A DNA stretch of 58,733 bases from Nanobdellota archaeon (lineage in GTDB: Archaea > Nanobdellota > Nanobdellia > Woesearchaeales > JACPBV01). Within the stretch, counting starts at the first letter, position 1. Each line of letters starts with the position of its first letter. Below the pieces are notes generated by a model that did no database searches, was not told where the DNA came from, and saw only the letters and a program-made list of their open reading frames with translations. Below are positions 37,663-38,088 of the stretch, piece by piece. Where the stretch lies: assembly GCA_034660355.1 (NCBI GenBank), contig JAYEIZ010000160.1, forward strand, positions 1-58,733, read 5' to 3'. A program made the position numbers and the translations under genes.

Positions 37663-38088
37663 TTACTTAATTACTCCTGTCCATGTAGCACTTGCTACCA
37701 CATCCCCATCAACATAAGCTTTACCTACATACTTACTTAATTTAAGACTACATGCTTGTAAAGATACTCTGAATACTAATTGATCTCCTGGAGTAACTGG
37801 TTTACGAAAACGTACTTTATCTACAGTCGCTACAAATACACTATCAAATGCACCTTCATATTTTACACTTTGTGAGGCTAATAATCCTCCTGTTTGTAGC
37901 ATCCCTTCAACAATTAACATTCCAGGAAATATTGGTTCAGTAGGAAAATGTCCCTGAAAACAAGATTCATTAATAGTTATATTTTTAACTGCAACAATGT
38001 CTTTAGATGGGTTTATATTAAGCACTCTATCTACCATGAGAAAAGGAGGCTTATGAGGAAGAATATTCATTATTTCTTTTATGTTCAT
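37663..38088 (-). CDS. fabZ: 3-hydroxyacyl-ACP dehydratase FabZ
   Basis: Near-canonical FabZ: '[15 protein letters not shown]', '[35 protein letters not shown]', '[16 protein letters not shown]'. Catalytic His (GHFP) and Glu (IVEG) are present. The stop lies 1 nt before the terL ATG. Confidence 0.9.
   Translation of the reverse strand: [141 protein letters not shown]

Follow-up and report, generated by a model that had tools for sequence, protein, structure and literature searches.

A FabZ-type dehydratase gene at the terminase junction of an uncultured N4-like phage and its possible service to a phage-encoded acyl carrier protein module

We analysed a 58,733-nt stretch of DNA (contig JAYEIZ010000160.1, hereafter the window) and concentrated on an open reading frame (ORF) of 141 aa at 37663..38088 on the minus strand, directly between a putative small terminase gene and the large terminase gene terL. 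That this ORF is a fabZ gene in the arrangement just described is almost certain, and its product is predicted to be an active FabZ-type dehydratase of (3R)-hydroxyacyl-acyl carrier protein (ACP). The evidence leans, on balance, towards FabZ being the dehydratase of a phage carrier-protein module that includes an ACP and a ketosynthase (KS). An earlier sequence-only reading of the locus had offered two functions, diversion of host flux between lipid A and phospholipid or action on the phage's own ACP. The second is favoured by a contiguous ACP-KS-FabZ cassette elsewhere, by co-occurrence of FabZ with the KS, and by a matched loss of docking charge on FabZ and ACP, although the window protein itself keeps its docking arginine, Arg95; the first gained no support.

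The earlier description of the protein as an unmistakable FabZ is borne out by family profiles. It matches the Pfam FabA-like domain PF07977 (5.4e-33, 114 bits, cutoff 23), exceeds the cutoffs of the NCBIfam fabZ equivalog TIGR01750 (2.8e-49, 166.6 bits against 155.15) and of NF000582 (164.7 bits against 113), and aligns with the FabZ structures of E. coli (6N3P, 2e-36, residues 2-136) and H. pylori (HpFabZ, 3B7J, 3.5e-34). Membership of FabA failed, with 26.8 bits against a TIGR01749 cutoff of 238 and with Glu61 where FabA has Asp. The ORF runs from an ATG start to a TAA stop and contains both peptides quoted earlier. Retention of the catalytic His and Glu holds in proper alignment, with no misalignment: His47 and Glu61 fall on His58 and Glu72 of HpFabZ in these alignments and, by our own residue count, on His54 and Glu68 of E. 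coli FabZ. The GHFP and PGDQ motifs are canonical. Phe85 occupies the gatekeeper position (HpFabZ Tyr100), keeping the tunnel entrance hydrophobic, and Ser72 is found at the rear gate. Among the docking positions, Arg95 (HpFabZ Arg110) is kept, Ser114 stands at the basic position of the beta4-beta5 loop, and Thr137 replaces HpFabZ Lys152, a position that varies in bacteria too.

The window protein resembles the housekeeping FabZ of bacteria (E. coli 6N3P; H. pylori 3B7J/4ZJB) in its single hotdog domain, its length (~140-150 aa), its ~45% identity, and its dyad, motifs, gatekeeper and docking Arg. It differs in lacking the basic beta4-beta5 loop residue, in its small rear-gate residue, and in belonging to a clade most of whose members have Ile or Leu in place of a docking Arg/Lys that is invariant elsewhere. 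Its surroundings differ as well. The cellular context of fabZ, either lpxD-fabZ-lpxA or a fab operon, is not found here, where the flanks are the putative small terminase and terL in what appears to be a phage late operon.

Upstream lies the 269-aa putative small terminase gene (38090..38899, minus strand), which matches phrog_2109, a family with no assigned function (1.3e-70), and weakly the terS family phrog_2538 (1.8e-5). Downstream lies terL (36060..37661, minus strand; 533 aa, N4-like, phrog_38 8.9e-87), whose product shares ~58-60% identity with its counterparts in cultured N4-like phages that infect Enterobacter, Kosakonia, Pectobacterium and Vibrio. Further window genes encode an SU10-type portal, a major head protein, a scaffold-like protein, an N4-type small RNA polymerase, a split PolA, thymidine kinase (TK), ThyX, NrdD and a ligase. 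The source is an uncultured N4-like phage. No close relative at the DNA level was found among GenBank phages; the identical FabZ sequence is known from one contig of 73,123 bp, ~14 kb of which lie beyond the window.

The genes at this locus are packed as tightly as had been noted. Between the stop of the 269-aa gene (38090..38092) and the FabZ ATG (38088..38086) lies a single base, 38089, and the FabZ stop (37665..37663) is likewise followed by one base, 37662, before the terL ATG (37661..37659). An AGGA sequence at 38096..38099 (minus strand), read as the FabZ ribosome-binding site, is embedded in the terminal part of the 269-aa gene, 7 nt 5' of the FabZ ATG. Likewise, the ribosome-binding site of terL, AGGAG at 37674..37678 (minus strand), sits in the last FabZ codons, as described earlier, 12 nt 5' of the terL ATG. 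No promoter-like or terminator-like site was found on the minus strand between 36465 and 39709; a promoter-like site lies at 39739..39710, upstream of the p219 gene. The 1-nt gaps, embedded ribosome-binding sites and absence of internal promoters or terminators point to co-transcription and translational coupling with the terminase genes. The simplest inference is that FabZ is co-transcribed late with them; of the earlier claim that FabZ is expressed with the packaging genes, the tight packing stands as observed, and late co-expression would fit the lack of internal signals.

Scanning IMG/VR with an alignment of FabZs gave 44 loci, and 48 came from a second scan that was specific to the clade. 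In ~36 IMG/VR contigs of related N4-like phages FabZ occupies the same terS-like/terL junction, in the shared order p219-like gene, terS-like gene, FabZ, terL, adaptor. Identity to the window in these syntenic loci is 64-70% for the terS-like protein, 34-51% for FabZ and 67-78% for TerL. FabZ is found in nearly all loci whose TerL is at least 72% identical to that of the window, L003 and L004 being the exceptions. Below ~67% TerL identity FabZ is absent, and the terS-like gene either abuts terL or is followed by small unrelated ORFs. These alternatives in relatives suggest that the junction is an insertion hot spot, and they agree with the earlier claim that FabZ was inserted between packaging genes. 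From these comparisons FabZ appears to be a fixed occupant of the junction in one N4-like subclade.

The gene has the composition of the phage's own genes (GC 33.3%, GC at third codon positions 14.8%, codon adaptation index 0.75), and the ratio of nonsynonymous to synonymous substitution (dN/dS) is 0.10-0.26 across all 45 pairs of ten close FabZ variants. Together these results indicate that FabZ is old in the lineage and under purifying selection. The assorted small ORFs at the junction in other N4-like phages, and the lack of FabZ in a few close relatives (L003, L004 and L005-L007), might suggest a decaying or functionless passenger (moron) in an insertion hot spot. Such a passenger is very improbable, being largely refuted by the intact ORF and conserved catalytic residues, the fully phage-like composition, the low dN/dS, the conservation of the site in ~36 contigs and the tight coupling to essential genes.

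The phylogeny of FabZ had been expected to reveal a donor clade and to hint at the host, but neither was recoverable. The closest non-phage relatives of the window protein share only 50-54% identity with it, and their phyla are scattered, and a neighbour-joining tree of 152 FabZs joins the window protein to the phage core clade at 31% bootstrap, with other groupings unsupported. As this tree resolves neither single nor repeated acquisition, a single origin is argued from synteny. Scored with hidden Markov models (HMMs), the window protein reaches 187 bits with the bacterial FabZ model and 176 bits with the phage-core model, which places it between the two profiles; among the FabZs of its clade it is the most bacterial-like.

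Related loci show further features around FabZ. A small Cys-rich protein (57-68 aa, CxxCIWWxGDxSGMxGxC...GRYExCxxFL) that is absent from the window follows FabZ in 16 of them, among these L001 (5811..6017), L046 (2713..2904), L050 (3120..3317), L057 (978..1157), L067 (822..1001), L071 (3298..3471) and L082 (2136..2312). Some of these loci add a second Cys-rich ORF and a hydrophobic peptide of 37-40 aa. The Cys-rich protein may be a partner of FabZ or a separate moron. In L036 (IMGVR_UViG_3300013118_000038, 871..3444) the terL ORF is 857 aa long and carries an in-frame, intein-like insert of ~320 aa after 'VVTGHGAK', and in L082 the terL match (2316-2801 and 3750-4739) is interrupted by ~950 bp.

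The ACP/KS pair reported ~19 kb from FabZ in the same direction is present, 19.2 kb away on the same strand. Three overlapping minus-strand genes lie immediately upstream of the portal gene (15115..17193, minus strand; Pfam SU10_portal, 4.9e-137) and in its operon. The first encodes the ACP (18517..18843, 108 aa, longest ORF to 18879; phrog_28189), the second a short FabF/FabB-like KS (17525..18526, 333 aa; phrog_35856) whose start overlaps the ACP stop, and the third a conserved 111-aa protein, p111 (17193..17528; phrog_28689), which overlaps both the KS stop and the portal start. The order ACP-KS-p111-portal is kept in 64-76 of 80 IMG/VR loci. Among 50,697 GenBank phage records there is no homologue of the window ACP or p111, and the sole KS homologue is metagenomic.

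The product of 18517..18843 is predicted to be a carrier protein with a phosphopantetheine-attachment Ser. Its match to Pfam PP-binding is weak and marginal, and hhalign of its profile against E. coli AcpP placed DSL on DSL weakly (E 0.011); fold evidence was used instead. In the AlphaFold2 model (mean per-residue confidence, pLDDT, 84) helix II spans residues 49-63, starts at Ser49 and is hydrophobic, and the best 50 fold matches in the PDB are all acyl or peptidyl carrier proteins. Asp48-Ser49 is invariant in 26 family representatives. A 703-aa ACP match that resembled tandem carrier domains proved to be a TARSH_C repeat protein and was set aside.

The KS matches solved FabF structures weakly (1e-3). 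Nonetheless 22 aligned family members, of ~335 aa, share without exception Cys132, His260, Lys287, His292 and a C-terminal GAGMGN, and the Cys-His-His set corresponds to the triad of elongating FabF/FabB-type synthases. The family holds at least 163 proteins at 45-65% identity and gives 325 matches in IMG/VR. Its only occurrences in 185,579 species genomes of bacteria and archaea are on four contigs of metagenome-assembled genomes (MAGs), and on this distribution the family appears nearly virus-restricted. One of the four, labelled as a Hyphomicrobiales MAG (L217, JAJFHN010000039.1, 62,951 bp) has the ACP-KS-p111-portal-scaffold-major capsid protein order of the window at 48-70% identity. From its gene order it is clearly an N4-like phage contig mis-binned into a bacterial MAG, and it may hint at an alphaproteobacterial host or reflect a binning artefact.

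Homologues of p111 are 50-65% identical, and its matches in a viral library are small GNAT-like or uncharacterised proteins. Its AlphaFold2 model (pLDDT 83.6) finds GNAT acyltransferases as all top PDB matches, although weakly (E 0.05-0.3, TM-score 0.4-0.5). The protein is possibly a mini-GNAT-like acyltransferase, which we offer as a lead rather than a finding. Profiles of the proteins that come after the KS in MW202545.1 and in L077 showed no homology to that of p111. The phage set contains no gene of the LpxL acyltransferase family. Pfam found no FabD, FabG, FabI or phosphopantetheinyl transferase (PPTase) domain, nor any other fatty-acid-synthesis domain besides those described, in window ORFs of at least 90 aa, many of which match no Pfam family.

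The docking surfaces of FabZ and ACP bear on the proposed partnership. In H. pylori, FabZ contacts ACP through Arg110 with Asp35/Asp38, Lys129 with Glu47 and Lys152 with Glu41, and Arg110 is described as indispensable for ACP binding (PMC5143422). The Arg110 position is Arg or Lys in 116 of 116 bacterial-type homologues, a set made up of the best matches to the window protein and taken as a whole rather than by individual origin, as against 10 of 27 phage-clade FabZs, the others having mostly Ile and also Leu. The Lys129 position shows the same trend (84/116 against 2/27), and the rear-gate residue, bulky in bacterial FabZ, is Gly, Ala or Ser in the phage clade. The catalytic residues are spared, with the His kept in 27/27 phage-clade proteins and the Glu in 26/27 (the exception has Asp). 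Furthermore, the FabZ variants for which purifying selection was measured are those with Ile at the Arg110 position. On the carrier side, the phage ACPs keep Asp35 (26/26), replace Asp38 by Gly, Ser or Ala (24/26) and Glu41 by Met, Val, Leu or Ile (26/26), and have mostly replaced Glu47. Matched charge loss with intact catalytic residues is the pattern expected if phage FabZ serves phage ACP.

Linkage of the genes points the same way. In L077, from another phage type, ACP (4582-4881), KS (4878-6005) and FabZ (6007-6438) form a contiguous, overlap-coupled cassette, and L075 has the same arrangement. The neighbouring ORFs of both differ from those of the window, the sole similarity to window genes being a DUF3310-like domain. 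Of the nine long N4-like contigs that have FabZ at the terminase junction, six were confirmed to carry the KS among the 80 of 325 KS matches listed. The FabZ-less distant relatives L012, L028, L030 and L040 are also without ACP-KS-p111 upstream of the portal gene. Between the window and its relatives, identity is 38-51% for FabZ, 45-50% for KS and 33-36% for ACP, a similar divergence that fits vertical co-inheritance.

Several observations weigh against FabZ serving the phage ACP. The FabZ and ACP-KS genes of this phage are 19 kb apart in separate operons. ACP-KS is about nine times commoner in IMG/VR (325 matches) than FabZ (~36), and at least one complete genome (MW202545.1) has ACP-KS without FabZ, so that FabZ is not obligatory for the module. 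The other three long FabZ contigs lie outside the 80 of 325 KS matches listed. The Pfam search found no ketoreductase to provide the substrate of the dehydratase, and the hydrophobic helix II of the phage ACP might hamper host FabG too. Charge loss was compared as a correlation between families rather than genome by genome, and its bacterial side is the set of best matches described above. Moreover, since the window FabZ keeps Arg95 and scores slightly higher with the bacterial HMM, it may still use host ACP.

Much of this would suit a classic auxiliary metabolic gene (AMG), with FabZ using the host's pool of acyl-AcpP in late infection, irrespective of the phage ACP and KS, and either raising type II fatty acid synthesis (FAS II) flux to phospholipid or shifting the (R)-3-hydroxyacyl-ACP branch away from lipid A. 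The score above the fabZ equivalog cutoff, the retained dyad, hydrophobic gate and Arg95, the slightly more bacterial than phage-core HMM score, the separation from ACP-KS in this genome and the many ACP-KS phages without FabZ are all in keeping with such a gene, as is the cataloguing of fabZ, fabF and fabG as viral AMGs in deep-sea viromes (PMC10653327). We nevertheless consider it unlikely, if still a serious contender. Most FabZs of the clade have lost the Arg/Lys that is invariant in the bacterial type and yet are under purifying selection, a phage KS accompanies FabZ on the six long contigs, and the cassette recurs in another phage type. Nor is a genuine FabZ found in any cultured GenBank phage, which suggests that FabZ is not a common stand-alone AMG. 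The FabZ matches in GenBank 'phage' records (Listeria, Enterococcus, Staphylococcus, Salmonella and unannotated fragments) are probably contaminating host contigs, and were rejected on their names, sizes and missing annotation. The lipid A branch had earlier been framed as competition between FabZ and LpxC for 3-hydroxyacyl-ACP, which names the wrong partner. The competitors of FabZ for (R)-3-hydroxyacyl-ACP are LpxA and LpxD; LpxC is the regulated committed step balanced against FabZ and uses no acyl-ACP.

If FabZ does belong to the carrier-protein module, its substrate would be carried by the phage ACP (18517..18843) rather than by host AcpP, and the acyl chain on that ACP would be extended by the phage Cys-His-His KS (17525..18526). 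The three proteins would then form a phage-encoded ACP-KS-dehydratase elongation module. The host would supply phosphopantetheinylation, malonyl loading, ketoreduction and, if used, enoyl reduction, and p111 (17193..17528) may pass the completed chain on to an acceptor.

The lack of a phage ketoreductase among the ORFs searched with Pfam also suits a repurposed hotdog enzyme, one that keeps the FabZ fold and dyad and performs other chemistry on the phage ACP, such as isomerisation, an AmcE-like cyclising decarboxylation, or thioester hydrolysis that releases the product. A match to the family of AmcE, the cispentacin cyclising decarboxylase (NF058663), exists below threshold, and the small rear-gate residue (Gly/Ala/Ser; Ser72 in the window) implies a reshaped acyl tunnel. 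Such chemistry seems improbable, as the protein lies above the fabZ equivalog cutoff and far below that of AmcE (68.9 bits against 140), and its dyad, GHFP and PGDQ are canonical. Host FabG, moreover, could give the 3-hydroxyacyl substrate, by analogy with the AcpXL/FabZXL system, whose five-gene list suggests as much (PMC5613085).

A bolder version of the module would be a virus-specific late carrier-protein pathway, composed of the ACP with hydrophobic helix II, the short virus-only KS, a co-adapted FabZ and the mini-GNAT, insulated from host FAS II by altered docking surfaces and building a specialised acyl chain for transfer to a phage or host acceptor. We rate this whole combination as unlikely, albeit a shade less so than the repurposed enzyme. 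Its acceptor could be, for example, a covalently lipidated virion or ejection protein, which is suggested because the genes are overlap-coupled to portal and terminase genes.

Considered as a system, the closest analogue of the phage set appears to be the very-long-chain fatty acid module of Rhizobiales, which consists of AcpXL, FabZXL, FabF1XL and FabF2XL together with LpxXL and lists neither a ketoreductase nor an enoyl reductase (PMC5613085); from this gene list, housekeeping reductases would complete it. The phage parts list is alike, with a dedicated ACP, a KS, a FabZ-type dehydratase and possibly an acyltransferase in the GNAT-like p111. The rhizobial genes, in contrast, are a contiguous cellular cluster that includes two KS genes and whose acyltransferase, of the LpxL family, acts on lipid A, whereas the phage has one short virus-specific KS, a weakly supported putative acyltransferase of another fold, and window genes split over two late operons. 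The likeness drawn here is one of parts. Type II polyketide synthase (PKS)-like and aryl-polyene systems (ApeE ACP, ApeI/ApeP dehydratases and KS) likewise employ a discrete ACP, KS and hotdog dehydratase for a specialised chain. ApeE ACP ranks among the three best structural matches to the phage ACP, and the FabZ match overlaps ApeI-like families in Pfam. Nevertheless, the phage has no chain-length factor, ketoreductase or other Ape genes, and its FabZ scores well below the ApeI threshold (18.4 bits against a cutoff of 28.5), as a FabZ equivalog and not an ApeI/ApeP protein.

Among viral reports, one on viromes from 1000 m lists fabZ, fabF and fabG (PMC10653327), another names an ACP of the Schitoviridae Alteromonas phage R22Y as an AMG (PMC11705849), the N4-like pan-proteome holds 42 'lipid metabolism' AMGs (PMC10654107), and fabG-acpP-fabF occurs in predicted roseobacter prophages (PMC8224337). 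Unlike the phage set described here, these earlier fatty-acid AMGs are catalogue-level or read-level annotations of host-like genes, and none of the four reports describes a terminase-junction FabZ, a short virus-specific KS, an ACP-KS-FabZ cassette or altered docking surfaces.

Other viral contigs carry lipid genes in different settings. By sequence reading, the neighbours of the L075/L077 cassette are candidates for a protein resembling primase/helicase, for a helicase of SNF2 type and for a RecB-like nuclease. Four loci of a different viral lineage (L070, L076, L081 and L083, at ~4100-8000 in each) have a larger lipid cluster. It comprises, as candidates from sequence reading, an AcpS-like PPTase, an ACP, two desaturase-like membrane proteins, a 120-aa protein and a large radical-SAM-like protein, together with FabZ and a ~400-aa KS, both similarity-tested; the four FabZs form one clade with 99.5% bootstrap. 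In MW202545.1 (L087, the 57,457-bp circular Caudoviricetes sp. ctpbd312) the lipid genes lie among tail genes at 5678..7498, with no FabZ, and consist of an unannotated ACP, a KS annotated as 3-oxoacyl-ACP synthase and an unrelated 146-aa protein. L085 (5986..6354) and L086 (5968..6357), viral contigs of 29% GC, encode short FabZ-like proteins (123-130 aa) in which 'RDH' replaces 'GHF' at the catalytic His motif, surrounded by ORFs read from sequence as candidates for sugar or nucleotide-sugar modification.

Elsewhere in the window, the minus-strand late region is interrupted by a plus-strand block (18936..25878) that separates the ACP gene from the lysis/tail genes and encodes an ART-PolyVal-like protein, an ATP-dependent ligase, a TK-DUF3310 fusion, ThyX, an anaerobic NrdD and a MazG/dUTPase-like protein. 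The early/middle region encodes five pentapeptide-repeat proteins on the plus strand (41151..41555, 41888..42691, 44133..44741, 51233..51889 and 52750..53088; Pfam E 1e-29 to 1e-55). The gene for the family A DNA polymerase falls into two overlapping plus-strand ORFs, with the exonuclease and N-terminal polymerase in one and the C-terminal polymerase in the other (55642..57705 and 57677..58411). A 604-aa late protein (28160..29974, minus strand) matches the hepadnavirus X trans-activation protein in Pfam over residues 500-542 (1.1e-13), probably through composition or a brief motif in common.

Fatty-acid genes of viruses are commonly classed as host-derived AMGs that supplement host pathways. 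In this N4-like clade FabZ is fixed within the packaging operon, an ACP and a KS of a nearly virus-only family occur in the same genomes, and the docking surfaces of FabZ and ACP seem to have shifted jointly from the host type. If this is true, these phages would own an orthogonal system for building acyl chains, a new phage biochemistry with a lipid or lipidated product. They would also offer a naturally insulated pair of ACP and enzyme, of interest for engineering the specificity of FAS and PKS systems.

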